A stretch of DNA of 32,000 bases from Candidatus Saccharimonadota bacterium (GTDB lineage: Archaea; Micrarchaeota; Micrarchaeia; Micrarchaeales; Micrarchaeaceae), in NCBI GenBank assembly GCA_963698035.1, contig OY969114.1, forward strand, positions 720,001 through 752,000, given 5' to 3'. Position numbers and translations under genes: made by a program. Positions 5,494-31,660 of this stretch are shown one piece after another; within the stretch, counting starts at the first letter, position 1; each line of letters opens with the position of its first letter. The notes below the pieces were generated by a model. That model worked only from the letters and a program-made list of their open reading frames with translations. It was not told where the DNA came from and searched no databases.

Positions 5494-5793
5494 ATGCATG
5501 ACACTACCGATGTTCAAATGAATATTTTTATTGATATAATTGGTTGGGTGGGTGCAGTGCTTGTTGTATCGGCATATCTTCTAATTACTACCAATAAGCT
5601 CAAAATAGCATCAAAGCTCTACCAGCTCATGAATTTATTAGGTGCAGCCGGGATCATAGTAAACTCTCTTTCATACGGCGCCTATCCATCTGTGGCGGTA
5701 AATGTAGTCTGGATTTTTATTGCATTTTATGGACTTGAAGAGGGGCTATGGAGTAAAATGGCAAAGAAGAGGAGGAATAAGCCGCGAGTGTAA
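5494..5793 (+). CDS. Small 3-TM membrane protein (PQ-loop/CBU_0592-like architecture)
   Basis: Three hydrophobic helices. GGAGG lies 3 nt upstream of the ATG. YQLMNLLGAAGIIVNSL...VAVNVVWIFIAFYGL resembles small 3-TM families. No PQ motif. Confidence 0.5.
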   Translation: MHDTTDVQMNIFIDIIGWVGAVLVVSAYLLITTNKLKIASKLYQLMNLLGAAGIIVNSLSYGAYPSVAVNVVWIFIAFYGLEEGLWSKMAKKRRNKPRV

Positions 5794-5807
5794 GCCCGAG
5801 CCAACAG
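5777..5807 (+). repeat. AAGCC-type array
   Basis: ATAAGCCGCGAGTGTAAGCCCGAGCCAACAG. The gene's stop TAA (5791-5793) is the start of a TAAGCC unit. Confidence 0.6.
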
Positions 5808-5879
5808 TCATAACAGCATTATACTGCTCTGCACATAATTATACACAAAATTTGTTAATATATGATGTAAAGTGTATTC

Positions 5880-6137
5880 ATGGCAGCAAAAGAGCTTGTG
5901 GGCAAGGTAACGCACTACTTTGGCAAAATAGGCGTGGTTACAATCTCCCTTAGCAAGGCGCTGAGGGTCGGCGATAGCATAGAGATAGGGGAGGGAGAGA
6001 CAAAGCTTGTGCAGAGAGTGGACAGCATGCAGCTAAACCACGTAAACATAGACAGCAGCGAGGCGGGCAGCGAGATTGGGCTGAAAGTATCTGGAAAAGT
6101 TAGAGAGGGAGCCGAGGTCTACAGGGTCGAAGCCTAA
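5880..6137 (+). CDS. Stand-alone EF-Tu domain-2-like beta-barrel protein (translation elongation factor-like protein)
   Basis: GKVTHYFGKIGVVTISLSKALRVGDSIEI...VDSMQLNHVNIDSSEAGSEIGLKV...REGAEVY follows the pattern of small EF-Tu-D2-like proteins. Confidence 0.55.
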   Translation: MAAKELVGKVTHYFGKIGVVTISLSKALRVGDSIEIGEGETKLVQRVDSMQLNHVNIDSSEAGSEIGLKVSGKVREGAEVYRVEA

Positions 6138-6230
6138 ATAGCACCAACTATCAGCATTGATAGTCTTCGAACTCCAATTAGCCTATTCAGGCATTCATAA
6201 CCTTATTTTACTACGACATCTACCCCAAGA

Positions 6231-6250
6231 AAAAGCATAAATATCTGGAC
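6231..6250 (+). promoter_or_regulatory. Conserved BRE/TATA cassette AAAAGCATAAATATCTGGAC
   Basis: Contains the exact 9-mer ATAAATATC, ~40 nt upstream of ATG 6279. Confidence 0.6.
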
Positions 6251-6278
6251 CGACGTTATAGTATTACGGGTGGATGGA

Positions 6279-6587
6279 ATGGCAGATATAAGAAGTAGAG
6301 AAGACAGTAGAGACCAGAGGGTTTCTGCTGCAAGAAGGAAGGGTAGGGGGGCTGTGGACAGGGAGCAACTAAAGGCTGCTTTTAGAGCGGCAGGTGCGAC
6401 CGACGTCGATGACACAGCGGTAGAGACCGCAGCGGCAGTGGTTGAAGAGAGGCTCTTCGAACTAGCAGCCAGGTCTGTAGAGTCCAGCGAAGAGAGAGAG
6501 GAATCAAGACTCAGCGCATCGTCCGTTGCAATCGCAGCGCAAAGGGAAGCCGAAGACAGAAGGACGAGAAGGAGGGCAGCAAGATAA
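6279..6587 (+). CDS. Charged small protein, candidate histone-fold protein with N- and C-terminal tails
   Basis: The core LKAAFRAAGATDVDDTAVETAAAVVEERLFELAARSVE...SRLSASSVAIAAQR aligns without gaps to the archaeal histone pattern (IIKDAGAERVSDDARITLAKILEEMGRDIASEAIKLA...RKTIKAEDIELA, recalled from HMfB). R/E/D-rich tails flank it. The fold is unverified. Confidence 0.45.
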   Translation: MADIRSREDSRDQRVSAARRKGRGAVDREQLKAAFRAAGATDVDDTAVETAAAVVEERLFELAARSVESSEEREESRLSASSVAIAAQREAEDRRTRRRAAR

Positions 6588-6797
6588 AGCTATTCGGTAC
6601 TGTTAAAGTATCGAATACTTTCTACCTGGCTTTGTGCATGAGGTAGATTAACGCAAAGGTCGATTGGCTTCATGCACAAAAGCAGGTATTTTAGCAGAGT
6701 AGCCAAAGCGCTCCAAGAACGGCATAAACATTGTCACAAATACAGCAGACGGAGCAATATTACACTAAAACAAGCGAGCTTTGAGCTGGGCAATCCC

Positions 6798-7196
6798 TTA
6801 TCTCTTGCTTTTCCTTTTTGGCATGCTCATTAGGCCGACCCAGATCCCGTCAGGATCCTTTACGAAGCCCATTGCTATCCTATCGTTCTTGAAAAGCTTC
6901 ATTGCGACTGGCGCACCCCTGCGAGTGAGCCTGCGGTACTCCTTCTCAGCATTGTTCACCTTGAACATGAGGTGGTCCATCTCATCGCCCTTCTCATACG
7001 GCTTGTACAGGTGGAAGTTCTTGCCATACCACATTAGCCTTAGCTTCTGCCCAGTTCCCCTATCCTCCAGCGTGACGGTCTTCTCGCCAGGGAAGCGATT
7101 CATTCTGTCTACGACCTTGAGCCCCATGGCTCTAGTGTAGAAGTCGACGGACTTATTTAGGTTCCTCGTCCTTATGCTCGCATATATCAATCCCAT
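6798..7196 (-). CDS. VOC/glyoxalase-family protein
   Basis: MGLIYASIRTRNLNKSVDFYTRAMGLKVV ... DPDGIWVGL is a typical glyoxalase/bleomycin-resistance fold. Start set to ATG 7196, preceded by GGTGA-N5. Confidence 0.8.
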   Translation of the reverse strand: MGLIYASIRTRNLNKSVDFYTRAMGLKVVDRMNRFPGEKTVTLEDRGTGQKLRLMWYGKNFHLYKPYEKGDEMDHLMFKVNNAEKEYRRLTRRGAPVAMKLFKNDRIAMGFVKDPDGIWVGLMSMPKRKSKR

Positions 7197-7226
7197 ACTA
7201 TTCACCAAACATATCAGTTTCACACG

Positions 7227-7523
7227 TTAGTTCATGAATCTCTTTATGCTTAATCCAAACATCAGCATAGTGAGCCAAAACCCAATTAGCAGAGCTGGCA
7301 GTGCATAGCTGCCATATAGGTTAAGTACTACCAGTCCTATGGCAATTATTGTCGCAAGCACGAAGTTTGACAGGCCCCAAAACATGTTGACCTTGGGCGG
7401 TGATTTTTGGCCGAATGGGCTCCTAAAGATTTTTCCTGCTGCACCAAATATAAAATGCGGCACACCGTTACCTAGCAGGAATCCCACTATGAAATACCAT
7501 ATCAAGAAAAGCTCTAGCGCCAT
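7227..7523 (-). CDS. Small membrane protein, unknown function
   Basis: Three predicted TM helices. Start set to ATG 7523, preceded by GTGA-N4, with TTATATAT about 40 nt upstream. The stop lies 3 nt from the track start of the next gene. Confidence 0.5.
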   Translation of the reverse strand: MALELFLIWYFIVGFLLGNGVPHFIFGAAGKIFRSPFGQKSPPKVNMFWGLSNFVLATIIAIGLVVLNLYGSYALPALLIGFWLTMLMFGLSIKRFMN

Positions 7524-7560
7524 TCTCTCACTTGTATACAGGCATTTCATGCAAAATATA

Positions 7561-7583
7561 TAAGCCTAAGCGTGCGGAAGAAA
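7561..7583 (+). repeat. AAGCC-type array plus purine box
   Basis: TAAGCCTAAGCGTGCGGAAGAAA. Confidence 0.5.
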
Positions 7584-7630
7584 GAAATAAAGAATAGTGT
7601 TTCGATAAGTTATTGCAATTGGTGGTGAAA

Positions 7631-8038: not shown

Positions 8039-8140
8039 CAGCTTTGTCTAAAGTGGCAGATACGAGCCCTCCCAATAGTATGAAAACCAAATCATACAGA
8101 TGCCTTTTTATTTAACACAGTTCAACTAATACTTGTTTTT

Positions 8141-8791: not shown

Positions 8792-8817
8792 GTTTGCTGC
8801 AGCAAGAAAGGAGGCAG

Positions 8818-9672: not shown

Positions 9673-9724
9673 AAGGAATAGTTCAACGGCTAACTTTATT
9701 ATTGATACCTATAAGAGGTGTCCC

Positions 9725-9757
9725 CCAAGCCCCAAGCTAGCCTAATAAGCCTAAGAC
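9725..9757 (+). repeat. AAGCC-type array
   Basis: CCAAGCCCCAAGCTAGCCTAATAAGCCTAAGAC, followed by CGCACTAGGGCTAGAGAGCAGAG. Confidence 0.65.
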
Positions 9758-9823
9758 AATCGCACTAGGGCTAGAGAGCAGAGTACTAGGAGCAGCGCAG
9801 CTGGAATCGGTGGCAAACCGAGG

Positions 9824-9840: not shown

Positions 9841-9867
9841 ACAAACGAGTTATTTTTGGGCATCTGA

Positions 9868-10503: not shown

Positions 10504-10507
10504 TTCA

Positions 10508-10520
10508 CAGCCTCAAGCCC
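10508..10520 (+). repeat. Short AAGCC-type array
   Basis: CAGCCTCAAGCCC, directly abutting the promoter cassette. Confidence 0.45.
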
Positions 10521-10522
10521 TG

Positions 10523-10566
10523 GGAAAGCATAAATATCATGATAAAGTGAGTGATTTTGTGAAGGT
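10523..10566 (+). promoter_or_regulatory. Conserved promoter/5' cassette
   Basis: GGAAAGCATAAATATCATGATAAAGTGAGTGATTTTGTGAAGGT directly precedes ATG 10567. It matches 31658-31704 at 35/47 ungapped positions. Confidence 0.65.
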
Positions 10567-11319
10567 ATGTCTGCAGATGTAACATTAGATCCGAGCTCGA
10601 ACAAAAGAGTGCCTTTAATTAGTCAGGCCACTCCCGCACATGTCTCAATTCTTAAAAGGATTTATTCTAATGCTAAAGAATTAGTAAGGACCGCCGAACC
10701 CGAAACGCATGGGCAGATGGATAGTGAGCAGAGTGTAATAAAATTGGCTGCCGGGACATTAAATCTTAAGATTGTGCATGATGTTGTGCATTCAGAGAAT
10801 CTCACGCATAACGAGGCATCAATTGAGGTATGGGATCAAACAGACTACCACATAAACTTCACCCCAAACGATGGATCTAAAAAAGAAATTGAGATGGGGC
10901 ACATAAAACTAGCACACGGAATAGTCGTTCCGATCAAGACAAGTACATTCAAAGGAACGACAATAGCCCCGCCAGATACGATACAAATGCTGGCAGAAAG
11001 GGGAGTAGGCGCCGATGCAAAAGCGGTAGGTATCGATTCGTTCTTTCCGTTTTCTTTAATGACTAGAGAAAAAGAGAACTTGTATAGATGCAAGGGTATA
11101 GGTAGTGCATTACTAAGTAAAGTATTGGATGATTGTGCATCAGAAAGCGTGGCAGTTGTTATAGTATACACACAAGAGGTTGCGATGGTAGCCCTACTTA
11201 GAAAATTTGGATTCGAACAAGCGAATGAATACTCTTATTTCAAAGTTCTAAGCCAAGCCCAAGCACCGGGAAGGAGAGCAGGGGAGTCAAGAGCAGTCGC
11301 AACACAGGGAAAAGCGTAA
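10567..11319 (+). CDS. Hypothetical protein with C-terminal GNAT-like acetyltransferase motif
   Basis: YRCKGIGSALLSKVL...LLRKFGFEQ fits GNAT motif A (R-x-x-G-x-G). The N-terminal ~170 aa are unassigned. The last ~24 codons run through an intergenic-type repeat. Confidence 0.6.
   Translation: MSADVTLDPSSNKRVPLISQATPAHVSILKRIYSNAKELVRTAEPETHGQMDSEQSVIKLAAGTLNLKIVHDVVHSENLTHNEASIEVWDQTDYHINFTPNDGSKKEIEMGHIKLAHGIVVPIKTSTFKGTTIAPPDTIQMLAERGVGADAKAVGIDSFFPFSLMTREKENLYRCKGIGSALLSKVLDDCASESVAVVIVYTQEVAMVALLRKFGFEQANEYSYFKVLSQAQAPGRRAGESRAVATQGKA
11248..11286 (+). repeat. AAGCC-type array plus purine box (inside the 3' end of an ORF)
   Basis: CTAAGCCAAGCCCAAGCACCGGGAAGGAGAGCAGGGGAG. Confidence 0.65.
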
Positions 11320-11352
11320 ATATCTAAATATAATGAATATTTTTGTGATACT
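11310..11352 (+). promoter_or_regulatory. Conserved promoter/5' cassette
   Basis: AAAAGCGTAAATATCTAAATATAATGAATATTTTTGTGATACT precedes ATG 11353. The TAA inside the TATA box is the stop codon of the upstream ORF. Confidence 0.6.
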
Positions 11353-11652
11353 ATGCCAGAAACGCCAAAAGAAATGATGGAACGTAGAAGGGCGGGGCTC
11401 GTGGGAGAGAGGCCTGCCCCAGAGTCTACAACCGGCAGCGTTCCAGCAGAGAAGTCTGAGGCACCAGCATTGGACACTCCCGAAGCCATACACTCGCAGG
11501 CTGTTAGGCACGAAGCCGCGATTGCAAATATCTTTGAAGCAACACAGCTCCTCAGGACCCAAATGACGAGAGAGCAATATAAACCTAAAACTACAACCAG
11601 CACCCCGGATCAAAGCCCTAGCAAGGAAAAGCCTAAGCCACCCAAGTCCTAA
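11353..11652 (+). CDS. Low-complexity, probably disordered P/E/K/T-rich protein
   Basis: Strong cassette promoter and GTGA-N4-ATG context. No recognisable domain. The C-terminus (KEKPKPPKS) is encoded by an AAGCC-type array. Confidence 0.4.
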   Translation: MPETPKEMMERRRAGLVGERPAPESTTGSVPAEKSEAPALDTPEAIHSQAVRHEAAIANIFEATQLLRTQMTREQYKPKTTTSTPDQSPSKEKPKPPKS

Positions 11653-11672: not shown

Positions 11673-12407
11673 CTATATATTTATCAACGATGTCAGCAGC
11701 ATTATGAGGAAGGCGCCGGCGCATATCAGCAGCATCATTTTAGCCTGAGAATGTTTGAACGTTTCCGGCAGAAGATGCGAAGCGCCAAGGTACAGGAACT
11801 CGCCGGAGAACATGGCAAGCAGGAAAGCAAGAGGCACCACCCCCATGTTCACCGCAAATGTGGTGAATACCCCAAGCACCGGCGCCACCGCATCGATAGC
11901 CAGGAACAGAGTGGTCCTGGACAACCGCTGCTTGTTCTTGAGCATTACTGTCACCGTGTTTATTCCATCTGTGAAGTCATGGAATATCACTGCTAAAGCT
12001 ACCACAATGCCTATAGCCGGGCTTGCCAGATAAGCCGTGCCTATGGCAACGCCGTCAAGAAAGCTGTGTATCGACAGGCTGCCCGCGCCCACGGGGCCCA
12101 TCATATGCTTGCCCTCCTCATTCTGATTGTGGAAGTGATGGGTTAGCAGGAACCTTTCCAGGCTGTTGTAGAACAGGTAGGAGAGCACGACGGTTATTAA
12201 CAGGTATCTTATTGGTATTGCATTGGCTTGCGCTATGCTAAGTCCCTCTGGAAGGAGGTCAAGGAAGGCAACAGCTATCAGAGCGCCCGATGCGAACGCG
12301 AAGAAATAGGGCTGTGCTCTCCTGAGCTTTATCGCTGTAACGCCTCCTATCAGCGTTGAAACAAGCGTTGCAAACGCAAGTATTATTACTATGATTCCAG
12401 GTGCCAC
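11673..12407 (-). CDS. ZIP-family divalent metal transporter (ZupT-like)
   Basis: HSFLDGVAIG and HDFTDGIN motifs in a polytopic membrane protein. GTG start. Confidence 0.85.
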   Translation of the reverse strand: MAPGIIVIILAFATLVSTLIGGVTAIKLRRAQPYFFAFASGALIAVAFLDLLPEGLSIAQANAIPIRYLLITVVLSYLFYNSLERFLLTHHFHNQNEEGKHMMGPVGAGSLSIHSFLDGVAIGTAYLASPAIGIVVALAVIFHDFTDGINTVTVMLKNKQRLSRTTLFLAIDAVAPVLGVFTTFAVNMGVVPLAFLLAMFSGEFLYLGASHLLPETFKHSQAKMMLLICAGAFLIMLLTSLINI

Positions 12408-12436
12408 ACGCAGCTTTCTCTACAAAGAATTAAAGC

Positions 12437-12480
12437 TTTAGCCCGAGCCCTCTCCAAGCCCTAGAGGGGGTAGTGGGTTT
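12437..12480 (+). repeat. AAGCC-type array plus G box, flanked only by minus-strand genes
   Basis: TTTAGCCCGAGCCCTCTCCAAGCCCTAGAGGGGGTAGTGGGTTT. Confidence 0.6.
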
Positions 12481-12491
12481 GGCTAAGGAAT

Positions 12492-15652: not shown

Positions 15653-16894
15653 CTATCCTACACTGAGGCCTTTTACTCTTAGGTCACCAACAACTACATG
15701 TTCGTCTATTCTCTTTTTGATGGATGTAGACTCTATACCCCTTAAAAGCGATAACAGATCGCCAGCTATTATCACATCTTTTACTCCCTGCGTGCATCCA
15801 TTCATGTTTCTCCATGCAACATCAGCGGAGACGCTGAACCTACCAGTGCAGGTATCGCTTTCGTGTACACCCTGGAGGTAGTCAACTACTAGAGCGTCCT
15901 GTGTTACATCCCTCTCTTCCCTCGCCTTTATCACAAGGTTAGAGACACCATCCGCCGATGCTGTGTTTTTCGCTGAGGCCTTTCGCGCCCAATATTCATC
16001 ATAAAGGAAATTCTCAACCTCACCACCCCCAAGTAAAGTTATTGGTGATTTCCTCTGCCCAGCAGCATCGAACGTACGGCTGTACGTGCTGTTTCGTACA
16101 GCAGGATCATCGATAATAGAGATATCGGGGTTACCTATCTCCATTCCCTTTCCCAATGGTGTGCGCTGTCTGTAGAGATTTTCGCCCCAGAAGGCATCTG
16201 CTAATAGAGACCCAAACAGTTGTACAGAAGCCAAGGAGGTAAACACCACCTCATCGTACCTCTTATCGTTCTTTACCACAGTTTTAAGGGCCTCTTTTTT
16301 TCTAGCAACCGAATCCTTGATGTCACCAACGCTTATGTTTAATGCTGTCGAACTAATCTCTTCACCCACATCTGGTAATGGCCCGCCCATTCTGCTTCTC
16401 AAGGAGACAGCCATACCGAGGGCGATGGAAGATCTCCATTCTTCTATATCAGTACCTTCTGTACTTATGACCCTTTTTCTATAGTTTCCTGCAGAGACCT
16501 GTGCTCCGGTCAAATTCCACTTAGGCGTGTCGGTCAACTCCAAAAATATCTGTTTTATTTTATCAACACCGTCTGCAAGATTGAACTTCAAATTGACACT
16601 TGATCTCCCTGCGCTATCTCCTGACGGGAGCCCCCGGCTCTTGTCCCTCTCTGAAACCGCAGCCATCCGCATTGCACGTTCCGCAAGCTCGTTATTAAAT
16701 ACGTTTGAGTTTGCAATACCAATTCTTCCGTCTTTTACAACCTCCAATCTATAGCCAACTCCTGTAGAGCCTACCGAAGACGTCGCCATCGCCCAATCTA
16801 GCTCAAACGATAGCTCTCTGGAGTCAACCAGAAGAAGTTCGGCTTGGTAGCCCTCGTGCCTCAGTCTGTTAAGTGCAGAATAATAACCACCCAT
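15653..16894 (-). CDS. pmbA: PmbA/TldE-family protein (non-catalytic partner of TldD)
   Basis: TldD/PmbA-family length and C-terminal pattern, without an HExxxH motif. Its ATG overlaps the TAA of the restored tldD frame (TAATG). Confidence 0.85.
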   Translation of the reverse strand: MGGYYSALNRLRHEGYQAELLLVDSRELSFELDWAMATSSVGSTGVGYRLEVVKDGRIGIANSNVFNNELAERAMRMAAVSERDKSRGLPSGDSAGRSSVNLKFNLADGVDKIKQIFLELTDTPKWNLTGAQVSAGNYRKRVISTEGTDIEEWRSSIALGMAVSLRSRMGGPLPDVGEEISSTALNISVGDIKDSVARKKEALKTVVKNDKRYDEVVFTSLASVQLFGSLLADAFWGENLYRQRTPLGKGMEIGNPDISIIDDPAVRNSTYSRTFDAAGQRKSPITLLGGGEVENFLYDEYWARKASAKNTASADGVSNLVIKAREERDVTQDALVVDYLQGVHESDTCTGRFSVSADVAWRNMNGCTQGVKDVIIAGDLLSLLRGIESTSIKKRIDEHVVVGDLRVKGLSVG

Positions 16895-18239
16895 TAACCT
16901 ACCTTTAAACTTCTGAGCCTCACATGCGGTCCCCCGAGTGAGACAGACACCTCTTGGTTGCCCTTCCCGCAGAATGCGGTCTGCATCATAAAGTCCTTTC
17001 CAACGCCGTCTATATCCTCAAGCGCCTCAAGGAGGAAACCATTCATACTGGCGCCACTCTTCAGACTGGCGACTACCTGACCTCCTACTATTTTGTACCC
17101 CTCGTCTATTCCAAACTGGAAACTCCCATTGGAGAAATCAACCTCCCCCCGGAAGTGTCGACTATGAGATAACCGTGTTTTATACTGGATATAAGCTCTT
17201 CGGCGGCTATGTCACCTCTTTCCATATACGTGTTTCGCATTCTCACCACTGCCGGCACTGTAACATCCTGCGCCCTTGCGTTTCCCGTAGGCGGCAAGTT
17301 TAGCCTAACAGATTGTAGCAGATCCGTCAGAAAGCCTTCAACTACCCCACTGTCTACTATTCTTACCGGCATGGCTTCGGTTCCTTCATCATCATACTTC
17401 ATGCTGCAACCAGAAAGCAGTGTATCAACAGTTGGCGCATCCACTATGCTGACAGAGCCAATAGCTATCTTCTTTCCCCTTTCCTTGAGAAGCAGGCCTT
17501 GCTCGCCGCGATAATCAACTTCCGCAAGATGACCTACCGCCTCGTGGCAGAAAGTGCCTACAGCTTCTGGGCCAAGGACAACCCGGTACTCGCCCGCATC
17601 TACCGAGATGCCCTTTAGCTTGGCATCAAGTTTCCTTGCAATGTTGTCTCTAAGAGTTTCCATACTTACTAGATCAAAAACATAACCGCGTGTTGTGGCT
17701 GCAGGCACGAATGCGGTAGCCATGTTGCCTGGCGTACCTGCAGTTGCTGTTACGATAAGCGAAGAGTTGGGAATCGATTGAGTTATTTCTCTACCATTGG
17801 TGTCAAAGTACTCCTTTTCCACTACCACTTCATAGTAACTTGCATCTATGTTGCGTATCAAGGGGGTTGATTCCAGTACGAAATCCCTCAACTCCTTCAA
17901 GTCCGCCATCTTGTCTTCCGGCGCCTTGTTAAGATTGGGGGTTGGCTTTACAACATAACTGTCCCTGAGTGGTGGCATAGAAGGCACGCGGTCTTCCCCA
18001 GGGCGCAATCTTAGACGCAGCGCTTCCTCCACATCAGAAGCGGTTGTTTCTCGCGTGGTGAACCTATCAACTACGTTCCCATCGCTCACGACCCTAAGCA
18101 TATAGCCGAATCCCAATACGCTTATATCCACCCTTTCAGTGTCTTCATCCGCTGTTATGCCCAGTACCCTACCCACCTCATGGCGTATGCTGGCAAAATC
18201 AACACCTTTCGACTGTGCCTTCCTTAAAATCTGATGCAT
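16894..18239 (-). pseudogene. tldD: TldD metalloprotease gene interrupted by a 1-nt frameshift in a homopolymer
   Basis: The N-terminal 365 aa include HEAVGHLAE (HExxxH). The listed ORF stops at 17106 after 12 out-of-frame residues. Shifting -1 at the C6 run 17145-17150 (G6 on the coding strand) continues as EVDFSNGSFQFGIDEGYKIVGG...FCGKGNQEVSVSLGGPHVRLRSLKVG, the canonical TldD C-terminus. It ends at TAA 16896-16894. Restored length is ~448 aa. Confidence 0.85.
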
Positions 18240-18352: not shown

Positions 18353-18397
18353 GAAAAGGCATAAATATCTGGATAAATAGAGTGTCTTTGTGACGCT
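18353..18397 (+). promoter_or_regulatory. Conserved promoter/5' cassette
   Basis: GAAAAGGCATAAATATCTGGATAAATAGAGTGTCTTTGTGACGCT precedes ATG 18398. Confidence 0.65.
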
Positions 18398-18889
18398 ATG
18401 TCAGAAGCAACAAGTGGAATTCGAAAACCAGAAGAAGTACAAACACCGAAGATAGTCTTCGCTGTAGGCAATCTGCGCATTGCAGAGATGGATGCAAATT
18501 ATCGGCAATCCATGGATTTTGCAAATAAGCCGGAAGGGGGAAGATCGGCGTTTACAAGGGAAGATTATGATAAATTAAGTGATTTGCAAAATGAGGAGTT
18601 GGCGCGTTTCCTTATCAAGCATCATAAAAACAAAGAGGGAGATGAAGGCAGAGTACGGGACGACTACGATTGGTTCTATCTGGGCGATAAAATGAGAGTA
18701 GACGATTTTGGCGACCCATATTTGTCGATAGTTTGCCCCAGCTGGAGTGGGTTGTTTGCGACGCCATCCTCTCGTTCCGATACGCAGAATGCTGTTGCGC
18801 CCCTGGTGGCGTACTATACCGAAACAAGCGCGGATTATAGGTTCAATCCGATAGAAGAGCTAAAACGTTCAGGGCCAAGCCCGCGCTGA
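18398..18889 (+). CDS. Hypothetical protein
   Basis: Cassette promoter plus GTGA-N4-ATG. No recognisable motif. The last codons (SGPSPR) lie in a repeat/hairpin. Confidence 0.55.
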   Translation: MSEATSGIRKPEEVQTPKIVFAVGNLRIAEMDANYRQSMDFANKPEGGRSAFTREDYDKLSDLQNEELARFLIKHHKNKEGDEGRVRDDYDWFYLGDKMRVDDFGDPYLSIVCPSWSGLFATPSSRSDTQNAVAPLVAYYTETSADYRFNPIEELKRSGPSPR

Positions 18890-18920
18890 GAGTAGCTGTG
18901 CATGAGAGCGGGCTGGGAAG
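18871..18920 (+). repeat. AAGCC unit plus complementary GGGCT box (hairpin-capable)
   Basis: AGGGCCAAGCCCGCGCTGAGAGTAGCTGTGCATGAGAGCGGGCTGGGAAG. AGCCCGC (18878-18884) is complementary to GCGGGCT (18908-18914). Confidence 0.55.
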
Positions 18921-18958
18921 AAGCATACGCTTTAATAATTTAAATGCGTTCATTCATC

Positions 18959-19296: not shown

Positions 19297-19710
19297 ATGC
19301 CACAACAACTTGTTACACAGAATCCAGAATTCCGACAGGCAGAGGCCGTAATGATATCAAAAACTCAAATTACCCAGGAACGGGGGTTTGAGGCTGTCAA
19401 AAGCAAGAAAGGATACCACGTGGCTTCTGAAGAGGAGCTTGATGCTCTTTCCAGAACGAATCAGGGCGTTAGAGAACTTCTAATCAGCAGTTGGGTTTTA
19501 ACAAATAAAATAAATGAATACGGCGGTCCTGTGGCTGTCAGCTTCGGCTACGGCGGGTACTGGTACTTAGGCGTCATTCATGGGGAGAGGGGTCCCGACC
19601 TTCATGGCTGGGTGGTGTTGGTGCCAGATGCCAGCGAAGCTACCACGCCACAAAGTGAACCTCTAAGGCCAACACCTACTATACTAAGAAGAAGGAGCAC
19701 AGAGACATAA
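19297..19710 (+). CDS. Hypothetical protein
   Basis: GTGA-N4-ATG lies 17 nt after the upstream stop, so it is likely co-transcribed. No recognisable domain. Confidence 0.55.
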   Translation: MPQQLVTQNPEFRQAEAVMISKTQITQERGFEAVKSKKGYHVASEEELDALSRTNQGVRELLISSWVLTNKINEYGGPVAVSFGYGGYWYLGVIHGERGPDLHGWVVLVPDASEATTPQSEPLRPTPTILRRRSTET

Positions 19711-19756
19711 GCCTAAGCAGAAGGAGAGAGATTAAGGTAGGAGAGTGCCGGAAGAG
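19707..19756 (+). repeat. AAGCC-type array plus purine box
   Basis: ATAAGCCTAAGCAGAAGGAGAGAGATTAAGGTAGGAGAGTGCCGGAAGAG. The stop TAA (19708-19710) begins the first unit. Confidence 0.6.
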
Positions 19757-19809
19757 TTTCGCCCCATCACATTTTTATACTAATGCATCTAATTGTTTCT
19801 GGTGGATAA

Positions 19810-20321: not shown

Positions 20322-20360
20322 CTTAGCCCTGCACCCAAAGCCCAAGCCCAGCATAAGCAG
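20322..20360 (+). repeat. AAGCC-type array
   Basis: CTTAGCCCTGCACCCAAAGCCCAAGCCCAGCATAAGCAG. Confidence 0.6.
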
Positions 20361-21342: not shown

Positions 21343-21384
21343 CTCAATACCCCTAATTAATAAAACAACATAAAATATACCTCC

Positions 21385-21440
21385 AATAAGCCTTAAAGCT
21401 TTAGCTCAAGCCGAGTCAGGGGAGAGAAGGAGGGAAGTCG
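21385..21440 (+). repeat. AAGCC-type array plus purine box, flanked only by minus-strand genes
   Basis: AATAAGCCTTAAAGCTTTAGCTCAAGCCGAGTCAGGGGAGAGAAGGAGGGAAGTCG. Confidence 0.6.
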
Positions 21441-21448
21441 GATTCTAT

Positions 21449-23675: not shown

Positions 23676-25193
23676 TTACCAGCTTGATTTTGTCTGGAAG
23701 CCCATCTGTATATCATGCGGCATGCTCTCTTTTAATCCTGCGCTTGTTATCCTGATGAATTCTGAGTTCTTCTGCAACTCCTTTATGGTTGTTGCCCCGC
23801 AGTAGCTCATCCCGGACCTTAGGCCGCCTATGAGCTCCCTTATGATCTCCTCGGTCCTTCCCTTGTAGTCAGCGAGGCCCTCAACGCCCTCAGGCGTCCT
23901 GCCCTCTAACATCCCCTCGGTAACCTCCTTCTCCCTAATAATATCTACACCCTCTCTTTTCTTTCTATCAACAGAGGCGGTGAGCGAGGCCATACCGCGC
24001 GTCAGCTTGTACTTTCTGCCGTTCTTGAGAACAACAGGTCCCGGACTTTCATCTGTGCCTGCGAGAAGCCCCCCCACCATAACCGTGGAGGCGCCAGCCG
24101 CCAGCGCCTTGACTATATCGCCTGGCGTTCTTATCCCCCCGTCCCCTATTATCGGGACACCATAATCGTCCGCCACAAGCGCGCTCTCCATTATTGCGCT
24201 GAGCTGCGGCACTCCAAATCCTGTGACTATTCTTGTTATGCAGATGCTGCCGCTTCCCACACCTATCTTCACCGCATCTGCGCCCGCCTTTATCAGATCC
24301 CTTGTACCCTCCGGCGTTGCAACATTGCCTACAATCACCTGAATATCACCGTATGCCTTCTTCACTGCTTTCAGGGTGTCGACCGCATTCGATGAGTGGC
24401 CATGCGCTATATCGACAACAAGCACATCCGCCCCCGCCTCTATGAGCTTGCCCGCCCTGTTCATATAATCGCCCTTGACCCCTATCGCCGCTCCCACCAG
24501 CAGCCTTCCCTTCTTGTCCTTGCTGGCATTCGGGAACTGTATGCGTTTCAGGAGGTCAGATGATGTTATAAGTCCTGTTAGCCTGTCGCTCTTGTCTACA
24601 AGAGGCAGCTTCTCCACCTTGTTATCCTTGAGCAGCTTATAGGCCTCGTCCATCGAGACATTCGTCGGTGCTGTTATCAGCCTCTTCCTGGGGGTCATCA
24701 CCTCCCTTATCTTTATCGTAGGGTCGTCCTGGAGCATTATGTCGCGCGTGGTGAGCACGCCGAGAAGTTTGCGGTCCTTTCCAACGATTACTATACCACC
24801 TATGTCATACTCATCGAGTATCTTTCTCGCATCTGCGATCGGGCGCTCCGGCCCGAGCGTCAGGGGGTCTTCTACCATGAGGTTCTCTGACCTCTTGACT
24901 CTGGCTACCTCCCTCACCTCTTCATCAACGGTTAGAAACCTGTGTATTATCCCAATACCCCCGAGCCTCGCCATCGCGATAGCCATGGAGGCCTCTGTCA
25001 CGACGTCCATATTTGCACTTACTACCGGTATGCCCAGCTCTATCTTTCTCGTTAGGCGGCTCCTGGTGTCGACCATCTTGCGCGTCCTTACATCAGAATA
25101 CTTCGGGACAAGCAGCACATCGTCAAAGGTCAATGCCGGGCCACTGTGTGCAGCAAAAACTCTCATCTTGGAATTAGTACCCCTCTTTACCAT
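23676..25193 (-). CDS. guaB: IMP dehydrogenase with CBS pair
   Basis: [10 protein letters not shown], catalytic loop [28 protein letters not shown], and an inserted CBS region. Confidence 0.95.
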
Positions 25194-25288: not shown

Positions 25289-25325
25289 AGAAAGCTATAA
25301 ATATCTGGATAATGTGAGCTTTTTT
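25289..25325 (+). promoter_or_regulatory. Conserved promoter/5' cassette
   Basis: AGAAAGCTATAAATATCTGGATAATGTGAGCTTTTTT precedes ATG 25326. Confidence 0.6.
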
Positions 25326-25613
25326 ATGATTGAAATAGCAGCGCAAGATGTATTGAGGGATGCGCAACATACAGTGTCTCGGGTGGACACTAGTGCCGGA
25401 AGCGAGGTTTCTGACAGCCACGCGAGATATTTAGCAAGAATGGCAAATCGCACTGCCGTTGATAGCAATCCATCTCTATATTTGAGGGCGCAACCTAAAG
25501 ATATTACAGCAAGGATGGCCAAGTTTAATGGCGATAAAATTATGGTCCTTGCACTCGGCGCAACTACTTTTGTTCTTACAGAAATCAGTAACTTAGCGCC
25601 GCTATTAAGGTAG
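25326..25613 (+). CDS. Hypothetical protein
   Basis: Chosen over the antisense 116-aa ORF because of the cassette promoter in the plus orientation. No motif. Confidence 0.45.
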   Translation: MIEIAAQDVLRDAQHTVSRVDTSAGSEVSDSHARYLARMANRTAVDSNPSLYLRAQPKDITARMAKFNGDKIMVLALGATTFVLTEISNLAPLLR

Positions 25614-25648: not shown

Positions 25649-25870
25649 TTAGTCTGTGCGCCTGGAAATTCCCGACCTTAATTGGGGCGAAGGCATAAGT
25701 GCAGTGCAACAGCCATCACAACCGTGAACACTTCCTTCCCTTCCCATCTGTTTTGGATACCATATGGTATGACCAATACCGTGTTTGCATGTCCATTCTA
25801 ATCTGCCGTCCTCTCGGTAATTCAATTCTTCTTTTTTATATCCTTTCGCAACTTGTTCTCTCGTTACCAT
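25649..25870 (-). CDS. Small Cys/His-rich protein
   Basis: WTCKHGIGHTIW...VHGCDGCC suggests metal binding. AAAGCTTAG box 30 nt upstream of the ATG. Confidence 0.45.
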   Translation of the reverse strand: MVTREQVAKGYKKEELNYREDGRLEWTCKHGIGHTIWYPKQMGREGSVHGCDGCCTALMPSPQLRSGISRRTD

Positions 25871-25891
25871 ACTTTCATCACTTATGCAAAA

Positions 25892-25928
25892 CTAAGCTTT
25901 AAGCCTTAGCCCAAGCCCAGCTGGCTGG
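25892..25928 (+). repeat. AAGCC-type array
   Basis: CTAAGCTTTAAGCCTTAGCCCAAGCCCAGCTGGCTGG. Confidence 0.6.
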
Positions 25929-27254: not shown

Positions 27255-27260
27255 AGGACG

Positions 27261-27282
27261 CAACCAAGCCTAGCTAGGGGAT
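27261..27282 (+). repeat. AAGCC unit plus CCTAGCTAGG palindrome
   Basis: CAACCAAGCCTAGCTAGGGGAT, a few nt after the amt stop. Confidence 0.5.
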
Positions 27283-27416
27283 AGAAAAACGCACTAGGAG
27301 TGGGCTAGAACGCCTCTCCACTTCGAAGTGCACAAGAGCTAGAGAGAAGGGAAGCGTGGAGTTACAGAGCATGCTAGATGGCCCTAGCCCACTCTTTAAC
27401 GATCTTCTCCTTTTAA

Positions 27417-27737
27417 TTACCTAAACATATTTGTATCGGCAGTCGTCTTTATCTCTGGTTGCTTGGGCATAGATGGATCAGCTAATTGTTTTTCTAAATT
27501 AACTATATTTTCAGATAAGATTTTGACTAGAGCTTTTGCTGTATTTTTGCTTATTATAAATTCGCCGATAGCTTGATGCTTCATTCCATCCACAAAAATG
27601 AGTTCTATTTGACATTCTTTCTCGATTTTCCCTTTAGCGTCTTTTGCTGCCTTCATCCTAATTGCTAAAGCAACGTCATCAGCAAAAATTGGCTTGGTGT
27701 CAAAGAAGTTTATGCTTTGTTTTTGTTCATCTACCAT
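27417..27737 (-). CDS. Hypothetical protein (DUF3467-like pattern)
   Basis: SINFFDTKPIFADDVALAI...IGEFIISKNTAKALVKILSENIVNLEKQL loosely follows the DUF3467 pattern as I recall it. Unverified. Confidence 0.45.
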   Translation of the reverse strand: MVDEQKQSINFFDTKPIFADDVALAIRMKAAKDAKGKIEKECQIELIFVDGMKHQAIGEFIISKNTAKALVKILSENIVNLEKQLADPSMPKQPEIKTTADTNMFR

Positions 27738-27800
27738 AAAATCATCGTAATATATTCATTGGTAAAGTAATAAAAGCGTTGATAAAATGGGCTTAATTAT

Positions 27801-27860
27801 CAAAGCCACGCCCTAAGCCAAGCTCCAGCCTAGGAAAGGAGGGGGAGTGGAGAGGGCTCT
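27801..27860 (+). repeat. AAGCC-type array plus purine/G box
   Basis: CAAAGCCACGCCCTAAGCCAAGCTCCAGCCTAGGAAAGGAGGGGGAGTGGAGAGGGCTCT, then the promoter. Confidence 0.65.
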
Positions 27861-27883
27861 CAGAAAGCATATAAGGATTAAGG
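27861..27883 (+). promoter_or_regulatory. BRE/TATA CAGAAAGCATATAAGGATTAAGG
   Basis: ~30 nt upstream of ATG 27898. It resembles the SET-gene promoter AAGCATTATAAGGATT at 30229-30244. Confidence 0.55.
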
Positions 27884-27897
27884 GTTCAATTTGATGT

Positions 27898-28152
27898 ATG
27901 TATTATGTTGAAATACTTGGTTTGATTGCAGGCTTCTTCACCACAATGGCATATGCCCCACAAGCGATAAAGGCGCTCAAGACAAAGTCCACGAAGGATC
28001 TCTCAATCTTATGGCTTTCGATTGCAGGACTTGGAACCGCATTATGGATTTTCTATGGATTCTTCATAAGTTCCATTCCCATAATACTGTGGAACGTCGG
28101 GTCAGATGTGCTAATCGTGATACTCATAATGCTGAAGCTCAAATACGGCTAA
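27898..28152 (+). CDS. SemiSWEET / PQ-loop 3-TM transporter
   Basis: 84 aa, 3 TM, PQ motif (MAYAPQAIKALKTKSTKDLS), typical SemiSWEET size. Confidence 0.75.
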   Translation: MYYVEILGLIAGFFTTMAYAPQAIKALKTKSTKDLSILWLSIAGLGTALWIFYGFFISSIPIILWNVGSDVLIVILIMLKLKYG

Positions 28153-28180
28153 TAGCCTAAGCCCTAGCCCAAGCCCCAAA
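28152..28180 (+). repeat. AAGCC-type array, cleanest copy (period 6, four units)
   Basis: ATAGCCTAAGCCCTAGCCCAAGCCCCAAA, reading as AGCCTA AGCCCT AGCCCA AGCCCC. It starts at the SemiSWEET stop codon. Confidence 0.7.
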
Positions 28181-28319
28181 ACTTCATATCCTATACCCTA
28201 AGGGTCTACGCGGAGAGTTTTTCCCCCAAAATGTCAGCTCATGACTTTTTTCATAAGTTTTACGTGCTATCGGCTGAAGCATCCATTGGTTTTATAATAG
28301 TTAAATCAGCAGTTTTTCC

Positions 28320-29051: not shown

Positions 29052-29140
29052 GCACTCAAAACCCATCAGCCATCCTGAACCTGAGACTCAGAGGCCAGTG
29101 TCAAAGCCAAAGAGAAGCTAAGAGTGGGCTGGAAGGGCTC

Positions 29141-29166
29141 TAGAAATATATAAATATCTGAACGAG
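29141..29166 (+). promoter_or_regulatory. Conserved BRE/TATA TAGAAATATATAAATATCTGAACGAG
   Basis: Exact 9-mer ATAAATATC. ~60 nt upstream of ATG 29211, so this gene would have a longer leader. Confidence 0.5.
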
Positions 29167-29210
29167 CGAGATAAAAACAGAGCAATACGATATTTAAAAA
29201 CGGTGGAAAA

Positions 29211-30203
29211 ATGGTAACAATAGAAGGAAGCAAAACGTTTTACGCGCGTTCGCCACAGAGGATCAGCATAAGCGGCGGCGGGACCGATCTTTACGGATAC
29301 GCAAGGTTCTACGGAGGAAATGTTGTGAACATTGCCGTGGACACTTATGCCAGAGTTATGGTCGAGAGAAATCCCAACCCAGGCGAAGTAAAGGCGATCT
29401 ATGATAAGACCGAGAGAGTGTCAAAAGCCAAAATGCTTAGGCACGGGCCCACTGCCGAGGTGCTTCAGATGGCCGGAATAGAGTCAGGCGTTATAGTCAG
29501 ATACATTGACAGCATTTCAACAGATTCCGGGATCGGCCTCAGAGGAGCGACCCACGTTTCCGCGCTTCATGCAGCATACGCTTACGCTGGCAGAAGCATA
29601 GAGAAGGAGGAGCTTGCCCAAAAGGCAGTTGATGTCTCTAGAGTTGTAGATTTGGCGGGCGGGACCCAGGACGAGTACGCGGCCACATTTGGAGGGATAA
29701 ATCACTGGAAGTCGGTGGGGGATGGGCGAGTGCTTAGAAATCCGATCAACCTGACGGGCACAGCCCTCAAAGCCTTCATGGAATGCACAACAGTGTTCTA
29801 TACTGGCACATTCGGCGATTATTCCATACTAACCGCAGAGATGGCAAGGCTGGAAAAGCACATAGACGACTTCCACAAGCTCTCGAGCCTTGCAAGACAA
29901 ACGCCAGAGCCCCTTCTAAAGGGTGACATGGAAGTAGTTGGAGGGATATTGGCGGAGGACTGGGAGATAAAGCAGTCGCTGGATCCCAGTGTTGCTACGG
30001 CGAAGATGAAGCACGTTGACGGGCTTTTAAGGAAGGAGGGCGCGTGGGGCATGAAGGTCATGGGCCCCGGCAGCGGGGGTACAATAATAGTGATGGCGCC
30101 AGAGGAATTGCGTGAAAAGATAATATCTCTGATGGGTTCCGAAGGGCTGGCGCGCTACAACTTCAAGATTGACAACGAGGGCAGCAAGGTTTGGAGCCTG
30201 TAG
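29211..30203 (+). CDS. GHMP-family sugar kinase (COG2605-like)
   Basis: RISISGGGTDL (motif 1) and KVMGPGSGGTIIVMAP (motif 3). Motif 2 is atypical: DSGIGLRGATHVSA instead of a GLGSSS-type loop. Confidence 0.8.
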   Translation: MVTIEGSKTFYARSPQRISISGGGTDLYGYARFYGGNVVNIAVDTYARVMVERNPNPGEVKAIYDKTERVSKAKMLRHGPTAEVLQMAGIESGVIVRYIDSISTDSGIGLRGATHVSALHAAYAYAGRSIEKEELAQKAVDVSRVVDLAGGTQDEYAATFGGINHWKSVGDGRVLRNPINLTGTALKAFMECTTVFYTGTFGDYSILTAEMARLEKHIDDFHKLSSLARQTPEPLLKGDMEVVGGILAEDWEIKQSLDPSVATAKMKHVDGLLRKEGAWGMKVMGPGSGGTIIVMAPEELREKIISLMGSEGLARYNFKIDNEGSKVWSL

Positions 30204-30205
30204 GG

Positions 30206-30241
30206 TTTGCCCGAGCTCCAAGCCTGATAAGCATTATAAGG
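30206..30241 (+). repeat. AAGCC-type array merging into the SET promoter
   Basis: TTTGCCCGAGCTCCAAGCCTGATAAGCATTATAAGG. Confidence 0.5.
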
Positions 30242-30262
30242 ATTGATTGCTTACGTGTAATC
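30227..30262 (+). promoter_or_regulatory. SET-gene promoter
   Basis: GATAAGCATTATAAGGATTGATTGCTTACGTGTAATC. The TATA is ~31 nt upstream of ATG 30263 and follows an AAGCC-type array. Confidence 0.5.
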
Positions 30263-30841
30263 ATGATCGCTGATTTGTTCGATATAAAAGAAACCGGCAG
30301 ATACGGGAAGGGCATATTTGCAAGGAAGTTTATCCCCAAAGGCACCATTGTTCACTTTTTATGCAGAAAATGCGGGACTTGGTCAAAAAAAGAACTGGCC
30401 AGATTGCCCAAAGATAAATTAGATTTTGTTATGGAACACGAGTATCCTATGAAATATTGTGATGAAAGGCTTTTGTATATCAACCATTCCTGCAATCCGA
30501 ATATCATGGAGTCTGGCAGGGGGTTTGATATAGTTGTAAAAGAAATTAAAGAGGGAGAAGAGGCAACGGAAGATTATAGGATATTCAAGGAAGAACTTCA
30601 TTTTGCAGATGGTTGCAAGTGCGGAGAGCCGAATTGCATGAAAAGAACAACATATACACGCCCACCCCCGCAGAAACTACAAAGATTTTGGGATAAGAAA
30701 ATAGAAGGCGCGTTGCGATTAATCAACTCAGTAAATCAGCCTTTAAAAATCCAATTAGTGAAGGAACATCCGGATTTAAGCCATTTTTTCAATAAGAACG
30801 GAAAGCAACCAAAGCTCTTGAATACTGTTAGGGTGCCATGA
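30263..30841 (+). CDS. SET-domain protein (putative lysine methyltransferase)
   Basis: GRYGKGIFARKFIPKGTIV, YINHSCNPN, EEATEDY, and a post-SET-like CKCGEPNC. Start set to MIADLF (ATG 30263). Confidence 0.85.
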   Translation: MIADLFDIKETGRYGKGIFARKFIPKGTIVHFLCRKCGTWSKKELARLPKDKLDFVMEHEYPMKYCDERLLYINHSCNPNIMESGRGFDIVVKEIKEGEEATEDYRIFKEELHFADGCKCGEPNCMKRTTYTRPPPQKLQRFWDKKIEGALRLINSVNQPLKIQLVKEHPDLSHFFNKNGKQPKLLNTVRVP

Positions 30842-31008
30842 TGCATATTTTAAAGCGTCATGATCCTTCTCAAAAGGATATAAACAGGCATCTGGAGGAT
30901 CTTGGCATTAGGCCGCCACCACTAGTGAGAAAAGAGGAGGAGAAGAAGACACAGCCTCCGCCAACAGCACGGTCACTCACCCAACGCATATTCCGCTATA
31001 CGAGATAA
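30838..31008 (+). CDS. Unannotated 56-aa basic/proline-rich ORF, ATGA-overlapped with the SET gene
   Basis: ATG 30838-30840 overlaps the SET stop TGA 30839-30841. It translates as MMHILKRHDPSQKDINRHLEDLGIRPPPLVRKEEEKKTQPPPTARSLTQRIFRYTR, with TAA at 31006-31008. It falls below the ORF-track length cut-off. Confidence 0.35.
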   Translation: MMHILKRHDPSQKDINRHLEDLGIRPPPLVRKEEEKKTQPPPTARSLTQRIFRYTR

Positions 31009-31116
31009 GCCCCCAACTTAATCATTAAATCACAGTGTGAAAAGAGAAGGTATTATAGAATTAGACGTGGAAGGGTTGTAAATCATTGATGGATAGACGC
31101 TAAAAAAGATGATAAA

Positions 31117-31410
31117 ATGGCAAGGAAAACAAGAAGAAGTTTTTGGGAACATTTCTCACTACCTCGAATTGTAGGAGCAGTATTTGTACTATTCTCAGTA
31201 AATGGGATAATACGAACAGAAACTACCGACTTTATATTACACAGATTAGTTACATCAAGTACATATGCGCATACAATTATTTTACACCTTCTTATATCGG
31301 GTTCTGGGGTGTTGGCACTTCTCTCCAACGTCATAATATTGATAATCGGAATAGTGTTGATAGTATTTGATATGAAATTATTCATACCACATACAAGAAG
31401 AGTAAGTTGA
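31117..31410 (+). CDS. Small membrane protein (2 TM), unknown
   Basis: Basic N-terminus followed by two hydrophobic helices. AT-rich region. The antisense 100-aa ORF is less protein-like. Confidence 0.35.
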   Translation: MARKTRRSFWEHFSLPRIVGAVFVLFSVNGIIRTETTDFILHRLVTSSTYAHTIILHLLISGSGVLALLSNVIILIIGIVLIVFDMKLFIPHTRRVS

Positions 31411-31414
31411 TTGG

Positions 31415-31609
31415 GTGAAACTGCAAGAATTTATCAGCGCTTGCAATAGATTTAAAGGTAAGACGATTACACTTAAAAATGGGATCAAACTCCATATGGA
31501 GGAAATACCCGAGATAGAGAATAATAGATTTCCTCTCAACTATCCACACATGGGAAGGAAGAAATGGATAAACATTAAGAATGTTGTTGCAGTTGAAGAA
31601 TGGAAGTGA
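31415..31609 (+). CDS. Small hypothetical protein (GTG start)
   Basis: 64-aa ORF starting 4 nt after the previous stop. No motif. Confidence 0.25.
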   Translation: MKLQEFISACNRFKGKTITLKNGIKLHMEEIPEIENNRFPLNYPHMGRKKWINIKNVVAVEEWK

Positions 31610-31612
31610 CGT

Positions 31613-31660
31613 CCAAATCCCTAGCCCGAGAAGGAAGGAGCGCTCGAGAGACCTCAAGAA
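31613..31660 (+). repeat. AAGCC-type unit plus purine box
   Basis: CCAAATCCCTAGCCCGAGAAGGAAGGAGCGCTCGAGAGACCTCAAGAA, then the promoter cassette. Confidence 0.55.

Follow-up and report, generated by a model that had tools for sequence, protein, structure and literature searches.

Strand-polarised AAGCC arrays form a dispersed family of intergenic elements in an archaeal genome region

Short tandem arrays of AAGCC-type units are dispersed through the intergenic spacers of a 32,000-nucleotide stretch of archaeal DNA (GenBank assembly GCA_963698035.1, contig OY969114.1, positions 720,001 to 752,000 of the forward strand), referred to here as the window. The arrays are a genuine dispersed family: they are enriched, they lie between genes and they occur on one strand. 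Each forms the left part of a bipartite element whose right part is a purine box, and the window holds 18 such loci. An initial annotation, made from the sequence alone, had reported 17 loci of two to five units. All of the sites it quoted are present, but about 12 of the 18 loci carry at least two units and the remainder are single units adjoining a purine box. We tentatively interpret the elements as slippage-prone simple-sequence modules beside promoters; they share their orientation with a local group of consensus promoters, all of them on the plus strand.

Same-organism DNA was obtained as three short Logan contigs from run ERR10755947. Joined to the window, they gave a composite of 43 kb, which later reached about 48 kb. 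The inferences all cover these ~48 kb from a single genome and ~10 kb from a single close strain. The composite divides into 5.3 kb of intergenic and 37.8 kb of coding sequence. An array was defined as at least two units (unit spacing is 5 to 9 nt at 13 loci), and the null model for the spacers was 1000 dinucleotide shuffles. When all sequence of the window is counted AAGCC is not enriched (102 occurrences, 88.7±9.1 expected), and the signal becomes visible only once strand and intergenic location are specified. The intergenic DNA of the window contains 18 AAGCC on the plus strand and 4 on the minus strand. Across the composite the intergenic counts for plus and minus are 50 and 19 for AGCC, 24 and 5 for AAGCC, and 22 and 7 for AGCCC. 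The plus strand of the spacers holds 52 AGCC where the shuffles give 28.2±4.8, as well as 8 arrays of at least two units against 0.70±0.83; neither value was reached in any of the 1000 shuffles. The minus strand of the same spacers is at chance (AGCC 19 vs 20.4; arrays 1 vs 0.33). If AGCT units are also allowed, intergenic arrays number 13 on the plus strand and 2 on the minus strand, whereas the coding DNA has an unbiased 8 and 9. The motif is not skewed within genes either (coding AGCC, 148 plus and 168 minus). Relative to coding DNA the arrays are enriched about 11-fold between genes, on the plus strand only.

All of the approximately 17 elements share one absolute orientation, and the C-rich array is always to the left of the purine box. 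The plus-strand copies that had been pointed out in two spacers between minus-strand genes (12408-12491 and 21343-21448) and in a convergent spacer (27255-27416) are confirmed, and the independence of orientation from the flanking genes holds across spacer classes. Sense-oriented arrays accompany none of ~14 minus-strand promoters but ~10 of 24 plus-strand promoters, which has a chance of about 5e-4 if the frequencies were equal. This polarity thus cannot be defined by reference to the promoter or to the stop codon upstream. The case for its independence of the genes consists of the two spacers between minus-strand genes, thin evidence in themselves, the one convergent spacer and the ~14 minus promoters without sense arrays. 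Base composition was considered as the sole cause and rejected, as it predicts an AAGCC:GGCTT ratio of 1.57:1 and the observed ratio is 4.8:1.

The arrays are regional. None was found on either strand in the 17.9 kb to the left of 5.7 kb (L150 1-4943; L082, which equals window -7192..5700). This flank includes 1.6 kb of ordinary AT-rich spacers, for which the Poisson probability of an array-free outcome is ~0.03. Their absence from the adjoining DNA shows that the arrays are not uniformly distributed. The consensus promoters of TAAATATC type number 9-10 on the plus strand, with none functional on the minus strand of the composite (window -1072 to 33707). Together with the array-free flank, this makes the polarity a property of a ~30-kb domain that coincides with the strand of the promoter class. 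The minus-strand genes have other TATA variants (AAAGCTTTAAT, GATTAAATATTAG), a strand asymmetry that matches that of the arrays. A metagenome scan with a 27-nt promoter pattern returned 52 loci, and all but 3-4 of these are chance matches in AT-rich DNA. The true matches (L101, L116, L121), from the metagenome of the close strain, are contigs overlapping the region of the window, which suggests that the promoter module is concentrated in this domain. One further contig, L129 (VFSW01320522), has a near-identical promoter-leader in otherwise unrelated DNA and lacks arrays.

The left part of the element consists of one to five degenerate hexamers of the form [A/T/G]AGCC[C/N] (AAGCCC, TAGCCC, GAGCCC and at times AAGCTN) on the plus strand. 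It is followed on the right by a purine box, of GGAG, GGAGAG, GGAAGG, GGGCT or GAGAG type, in agreement with the initial annotation, which had described a purine box after most arrays. Over 732 nt the elements contain A215, C200, G218 and T99 and are T-poor. The array singled out as the cleanest (28152-28180) is also recovered by Tandem Repeats Finder with a period of 6 and 3.8 copies at 28154-28176, and a second tandem repeat of period 7 lies at 9723-9737. Elements are left-justified in their spacers. Where the left neighbour is a plus gene, five arrays start within 0-5 nt of its stop codon (5791, 10509, 18877, 19708 and 28150) and ~0.6 would be expected by chance. These include the three reported previously, with TAAGCC at 5791 and 19708 and TAATAGCC at 28150. 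Where the left neighbour is a minus gene, the array lies 0-10 nt from its TATA box (GGGCTAAAGCTTTAAT at 12407, GGCTTAAAGCTTAG at 25870, GGCTTATATATTTT at 7550 and GGCTTTGATAATTAAG at 27737). Rightward the purine box reaches the TFB-recognition element (BRE) where the next gene is plus, or the stop codon where it is minus. In two cases the tail of an open reading frame (ORF) is encoded by the repeat itself, at 11248-11319 (…SQAQAPGRRAGE…) and 11630-11652 (…KPKPPKS). The 9-mer CGCACTAGG followed by GGGCTAG recurs exactly at 9761-9769, at 27290-27298 and on the reverse strand of L116 at ~775; ~0.24 exact copies of the 9-mer are expected in the window.

The promoters of the host are, judged by their sequence, of the archaeal BRE/TATA type. 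BRE/TATA boxes of the GAAAGC-ATAAATATC or AAAGC-TTTAAT type, with an A-rich BRE, lie 25-45 nt before the start codons, and a scan for bacterial promoters and terminators found sigma-70-like sites and hairpin-T terminators at the level of shuffled sequence. A promoter-leader module of ~45 nt, AAAGCATAAATATCnnGATAAAGTGAGnnnTTTGTGAnnnATG, is conserved at six sites and adjoins many elements. Its order is RAAAGC-ATAAATATC, GATAAAGTGAG, a T-run, GTGA (likely Shine-Dalgarno) and ATG, and it is near-identical at six unrelated, mostly hypothetical small genes. The strict 27-nt promoter pattern has 4 matches and none in shuffles. Positional homology among the conserved promoters ends ~15 nt upstream of the TATA box, and the arrays and purine boxes beyond that point vary in length and spacing. 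At plus genes the element lies between the upstream stop codon, or the promoter of the neighbour, and the gene's own BRE/TATA. Five minus genes have the array's complement 0-10 nt upstream of their TATA box. Overall the distance from array to TATA is 0-75 nt, with 0-10 nt at seven promoters (10509, 20339 and those of the minus genes 11673, 25649, 27417, 7227 and 8818) and 35-75 nt at others. Plus-strand AAGCC reaches 6.4 per kb in spacers between plus genes, 5.7 in divergent spacers, 5.7 between minus genes and 1.5 in convergent spacers. The plus-strand arrays are distributed among the same classes as 5, 5, 2 and 1. The genes downstream of the arrays are functionally unrelated, and AAGC is common to the array units and the local BRE consensus, RAAAGC. 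The promoter of ORF 11353..11652 lies inside the 3' end of ORF 10567..11319.

The elements have no general secondary structure. The AGCCC and GGGCT arms had led to the proposal that they are hairpin-capable. As a general property this fails, as folding of nine elements on both strands gave z values from -2.0 to +2.3 against shuffles, with |z|<2 in 16 of the 18 folds and half of them worse than the shuffles. Pairs that can stack include those of 18870-18925 (-21.3 kcal/mol) and 12425-12491 (z -2.0), and a repeat search reported no local inverted repeats at the elements. Searches of the window against Rfam gave no match at the gathering score or at E<=1, in line with the initial annotation, which had not recognised the arrays as a described repeat family, and with no tRNAs in the window a known non-coding RNA was rejected. 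Canonical four-tract C3/G3 motifs occur at a single site in 43 kb (20327-20349), and a G-quadruplex or i-motif identity was rejected on this count. A provirus or mobile-element origin of the domain was also rejected, with one weak PHROGs match among 10 proteins and Pfam mostly empty for the small proteins.

Comparison with a close strain, 97-98% identical to the window, reveals that the elements change rapidly. The strain was located through a cluster look-up in JGI metagenome 3300010341 (Ga0074045 contigs) and one ENA contig, and contigs L087, L101, L116, L121, L147, L148 and L149 were aligned to the window. When all elements are taken together, their divergence is 8.1%, and 248 nt contain 4 indel events. 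The remaining intergenic DNA differs by 3.2%, and within codons the figures are 3.7% for the third position and 1.5% for positions 1+2. The substitutions cluster within the elements: there are 3 in 27 nt of the cleanest array, 7 in 28 nt of element 31615-31655, and six changes, mostly A-to-G, in the purine box at 21418 between two minus genes. Whole units also come and go. At 27803 the array of the close strain is shorter by two units (12 nt) and the purine box by 2 nt, and upstream of amtB (25925) it has an additional 28-nt purine box. Such hypervariability between near-identical strains speaks against an array of exact protein-binding sites. The modules are also places where gene content differs. 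On the reverse strand of L116, corresponding to window 33674-33733, the close strain has two extra small genes, one winged-helix-like, each with its own array, purine box and consensus promoter and each placed, in the same orientation, where a module already exists. The arrays are lineage-specific among the related genomes compared, being present in this strain and absent from the three distant relatives compared, L002 (IMPDH 84% identical), L084 (TldD 55%) and L086 (TldD 53%), which are too distant for footprinting. The elements and promoter modules are listed in Table 1.

Table 1. Elements and promoter-leader modules in the window, with their immediate context
Feature	Position	Strand	Context
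Array TAAGCCCGAGCCA	5791..5803	+	Begins on stop codon of ORF 5494..5793
Weak element: one AAGCC unit and TAAGC, then purine run GGAAGAAAGAAA	7560..7590	+	Divergent spacer; complement abuts TATATATTTT of minus gene 7227..7550
Array (CCCCAAGCCCCAAGCTAGCCTAATAAGCCTAAG), then CGCACTAGGGCTAGAGAG purine box	9723..9800	+	Divergent spacer
Two-unit array AGCCTCAAGCCC	10509..10524	+	5 nt past stop codon; 5 nt upstream of BRE GAAAGC
Array and purine box	11248..11300	+	Within 3' tail of ORF 10567..11319, upstream of promoter of 11353..11652
Two-unit AGCCTAAGCC, doubtful member	11630..11640	+	In last codons of ORF 11353..11652 (...KPKPPK)
Array and G-rich box	12434..12480	+	Between minus genes; marginal hairpin, z -2.0, unique among elements; complement (GGGCT)n abuts AAAGCTTTAAT BRE/TATA of minus gene 11673..12407
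AAGCCCGCG...CGGGCTGGGAAGAAG	18875..18925	+	Single unit overlapping stop of 18398..18889, plus purine box
TAAGCCTAAGC	19708..19760	+	Begins on stop codon of ORF 19297..19710; long purine box after
Array AGCCCTGCACCCAAAGCCCAAGCCC	20325..20352	+	Immediately upstream of promoter-like GCATAAGCAGC; sole canonical four-tract C3 motif in composite
Four-unit array and 20-nt homopurine box	21385..21440	+	Between minus genes
Five-unit array	25895..25925	+	Divergent spacer upstream of amtB; complement abuts TATA of minus ORF 25649..25870
CCAAGCCTAGCTAGGGG...CGCACTAGGAGTGGGCTAG	27264..27325	+	Convergent spacer
Array and purine box	27800..27862	+	Upstream of promoter of PQ-loop gene
Cleanest array TAATAGCCTAAGCCCTAGCCCAAGCCCC	28150..28181	+	Begins (TAATAGCC) on stop codon of ORF 27898..28152
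AAGCCAAAGAGAAGCTAAGAGTGGGCTGGAAGGGCTC	29104..29140	+	Upstream of TATAAATATC promoter of 29211..30203
Weak two-unit AGCTCCAAGCC	30214..30226	+	After stop codon
CCCTAGCCCGAGAAGGAAGGAGCG element	31615..31655	+	Upstream of conserved promoter
Representative BRE/TATA-leader module	10525..10569	+	Adjoins elements
Further module copy	6228..6249	+	
Further module copy	11311..11355	+	
Further module copy	18356..18400	+	
Further module copy	25292..25328	+	
Further module copy	29145..29160	+	
Further module copy	31660..31704	+	

The interpretation that we favour, while giving it somewhat less than even odds, takes the arrays for the left-hand portion of a two-part intergenic module of low complexity in an uncultured archaeon with a compact genome. 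The module would occupy dispensable, unconstrained DNA of promoter-bearing spacers. It may originate, expand and contract by replication slippage or unequal exchange, and it may have spread locally in direct orientation together with the near-identical plus-strand consensus promoters. Any action would probably be compositional, the module serving as a buffer, rich in GC and poor in T, placed upstream of the AT-rich BRE/TATA and acting neither as exact binding sites nor as a folded RNA or terminator. Of the roles suggested by the initial annotation, the footprint of a promoter-bearing repeat fits best, with elements beside the BRE/TATA-leader; a simple terminator and a precise protein-binding array fit less well, the former because of the arrays in divergent spacers and the latter because of the hypervariability. 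The arrays resemble prokaryotic simple sequence repeats and 'contingency' tracts in their head-to-tail units of 5-7 nt, in the gain and loss of whole units and in the raised substitution rate. However, they are degenerate and short (2-5 units), they occupy at least 12 spacers on one strand and they are coupled to a purine box, whereas typical simple sequence repeat loci are isolated and lie in or just upstream of single phase-variable genes.

Several observations weigh against this interpretation. Neutral slippage alone does not explain the uniform orientation and the fixed order of array and purine box, and the ratio expected from base composition is insufficient for the observed polarity. 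The association with promoters has little statistical weight: density gives about p=0.05, and spacer counts show no significance. The two elements between minus genes have no plus gene to serve, and five arrays within 0-5 nt of a stop codon are unexpected for a purely promoter-side element. Finally, element 12434-12480, between two minus genes, is nearly unchanged in the close strain (1 substitution) and has the fold with z -2.0.

The position of arrays next to stop codons would fit a factor-dependent signal for 3'-end formation or termination, which we regard as an unlikely alternative. The C-rich, G-poor, unstructured RNA after the stop codon would load a termination or processing factor, much as Rho utilization (rut) tracts do, and the candidate is the archaeal aCPSF1/FttA with its KH domains. 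Such a signal would replace the oligo-U terminators that are largely lacking here. T5+ tracts occur in 8 of the 33 free 3' spacers of the composite and never inside elements, in line with the oligo-T scarcity remarked on in the initial annotation, and termination in this organism is probably not mainly via oligo-U tracts, as far as the spacer sequences indicate. The arrays have C>G and do not fold, and five start at stops, all as in rut tracts. Composition-based signals of this kind tolerate rapid sequence change, which is consistent with the divergence of the elements. In both spacers between minus genes, moreover, the 3' UTR (untranslated region) of the minus gene opens with a tract rich in C and poor in G, formed by the purine box's complement. 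The spacers themselves are less favorable. Five arrays lie in divergent spacers without gene ends, an array is found at 1-2 of 7 convergent 3' ends but at 8 of 14 tandem 3' ends, and sense-oriented arrays follow 0-1 of 11 minus-gene stops. Also, rut tracts are bacterial, and we know of no archaeal factor with an established rut-like specificity. A simple terminator role is not supported, given the divergent arrays, the T-poor composition and the presence of an array in 1 of 7 convergent spacers of at least 40 nt. Terminator-like sites number 23 against 17.7±4.2 in shuffled sequence, and 0 overlap plus-strand arrays. The only clear hairpin-type candidate terminator that was seen is a 19-nt inverted repeat (6623-6641 and 6670-6688, 89% complementary, 28-nt loop) in a 210-nt spacer between convergent genes.

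The one-sided orientation would fit a second alternative, an intergenic-only signal of chromosome direction, to which we give somewhat less credence still. Here the strand would track replication and not transcription and would invert at the origin or terminus, and spacers with promoters would be marked by the arrays for a factor that is strand-specific and linked to replication or segregation, such as a directional translocase or one involved in lagging- and leading-strand handling. This would account for the co-orientation of ~17 elements irrespective of flanking genes and for the lack of sense arrays at minus promoters. The placement of all consensus promoters on one strand is as expected if the plus strand is leading. 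A strand effect on composition is also present, with an intergenic AT skew of +0.107 and a chromosome-strand A>T component of ~0.06 at fourfold-degenerate sites, but the GC skew at those sites is ~zero. Polarised short sequences are known from archaea, namely the archaeal short polarized sequences (ASPS), which are replichore-polarised oligomers (Cortez et al. 2010, PMC2958812). The arrays are similar to ASPS and to the bacterial FtsK-orienting polar sequences (KOPS) and architecture imparting sequences (AIMS) in that a short motif keeps to one strand for tens of kb whatever the orientation of the genes, here within ~30 kb. KOPS and ASPS, however, are single words of 4-8 nt that are found genome-wide, mostly in genes, and that invert at dif. 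The arrays are tandem, intergenic and hypervariable, show no coding skew of either the AGCC motif or the arrays, and are absent from the 17.9-kb neighbour; the last two results count against a KOPS-like system.

Arrays of hexamers just upstream of a promoter could also be binding sites for a lineage-specific activator or chromatin protein, with 6-bp sites upstream of the BRE that would recruit TFB/TBP, but we consider this improbable. Sites directly upstream of the BRE are an archaeal norm, as in the four 6-bp sites of EarA that lie just upstream of the BRE, and EarA, the ara-box and the upstream activating sequence of Ptr2 share with the arrays the presence of several ~6-bp repeats directly upstream of the BRE/TATA (PMC5512572). 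The seven promoters with hexamers 0-10 nt upstream of the BRE/TATA and the AAGC held in common with the BRE consensus could be read in the same way. The sites of EarA and the ara-box and Ptr2 sites are nevertheless conserved, belong to one regulon and assist weak promoters. In contrast, the array units are degenerate and unconserved, they evolve faster than third codon positions and whole units are gained and lost. They lie anywhere from 0 to 75 nt from the TATA box, and their orientation is not tied to the gene, being sense for plus genes and antisense for minus genes. The served genes are unrelated, and their promoters already have a consensus BRE/TATA.

A structured repeat, whether a REP/BIME-like palindrome (repetitive extragenic palindrome; bacterial interspersed mosaic element), an integron attC-like site or a G-quadruplex or i-motif built from the AGCCC...GGGCT arms, is hardly tenable: the arms are complementary, some pairs do stack, and the elements are dispersed, intergenic, often directly 3' of stop codons and, like attC, all co-oriented, but REP/BIME and attC are defined by folding imperfect palindromes, and the lack of folding in the elements largely refutes this reading and removes the hairpin, REP and attC versions of it, while there is also one canonical C3/G3 motif in 43 kb, no conserved core site, no transposase or integrase in view, and genes that have their own promoters.

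The organism and its other genes deserve a brief description. The window has a GC content of 47%, and its genes are densely packed. The homologues of its TldD/PmbA proteins are archaeal; the nearest is just 55% identical, and the lineage is therefore sparsely sampled. The IMPDH of the window (23676-25193) is 84% identical to that of a metagenome-assembled genome labelled Micrarchaeota (L002). After this and a 66% archaeal match, its nearest relatives are almost all from Chloroflexota/Anaerolineales at 51-55%, which suggests from the sequence matches a bacterial-type gene shared by transfer. A member of a SAM-decarboxylase cluster that was followed as a same-genome lead turned out to be from an unrelated organism with 62% GC. 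The TldD-like protein (17106-18239) has 377 aa and is without the N-terminal PF01523 that is present in its homologues of 447-460 aa, and a 50-aa ORF (16894-17046) overlaps the start of the adjacent PmbA-like gene. The minus ORF 25649-25870 encodes a Cys-rich protein of 73 aa (…HGCDGCC…). It was uncalled by the gene caller of the collection, is conserved in the close strain, and its BRE/TATA abuts an array. Two PQ-loop (SemiSWEET-like) paralogues, at window 27898-28152 and at L001 11409-11662 (equal to window 35478-35731), are 70-74% identical. They share a duplicated promoter region, GAAAG-[CG]-[AT]-ATATA-[AG]-GGA…GGGTTCAAT, and an AAGCC/GGGG-purine element lies upstream of each.

The significance of the elements depends on which of these explanations holds. 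An action on RNA 3' ends would make them a non-oligo-U, composition-based termination signal in a genome poor in T-tracts. Were their strand to track replication, the elements would constitute the first polar signal restricted to intergenic DNA, undescribed in Archaea or Bacteria, and could provide a sequence handle for origins and termini in uncultured archaea. The polar words known to us lie mainly inside genes. Even if the modules are just slippage-prone filler, they mark a ~30-kb domain whose promoters would evolve in concert, and in one orientation, with the DNA upstream of them. The gain and loss of genes at these modules between strains may then be a way for the spacers of compact archaeal genomes to evolve that has received little study.

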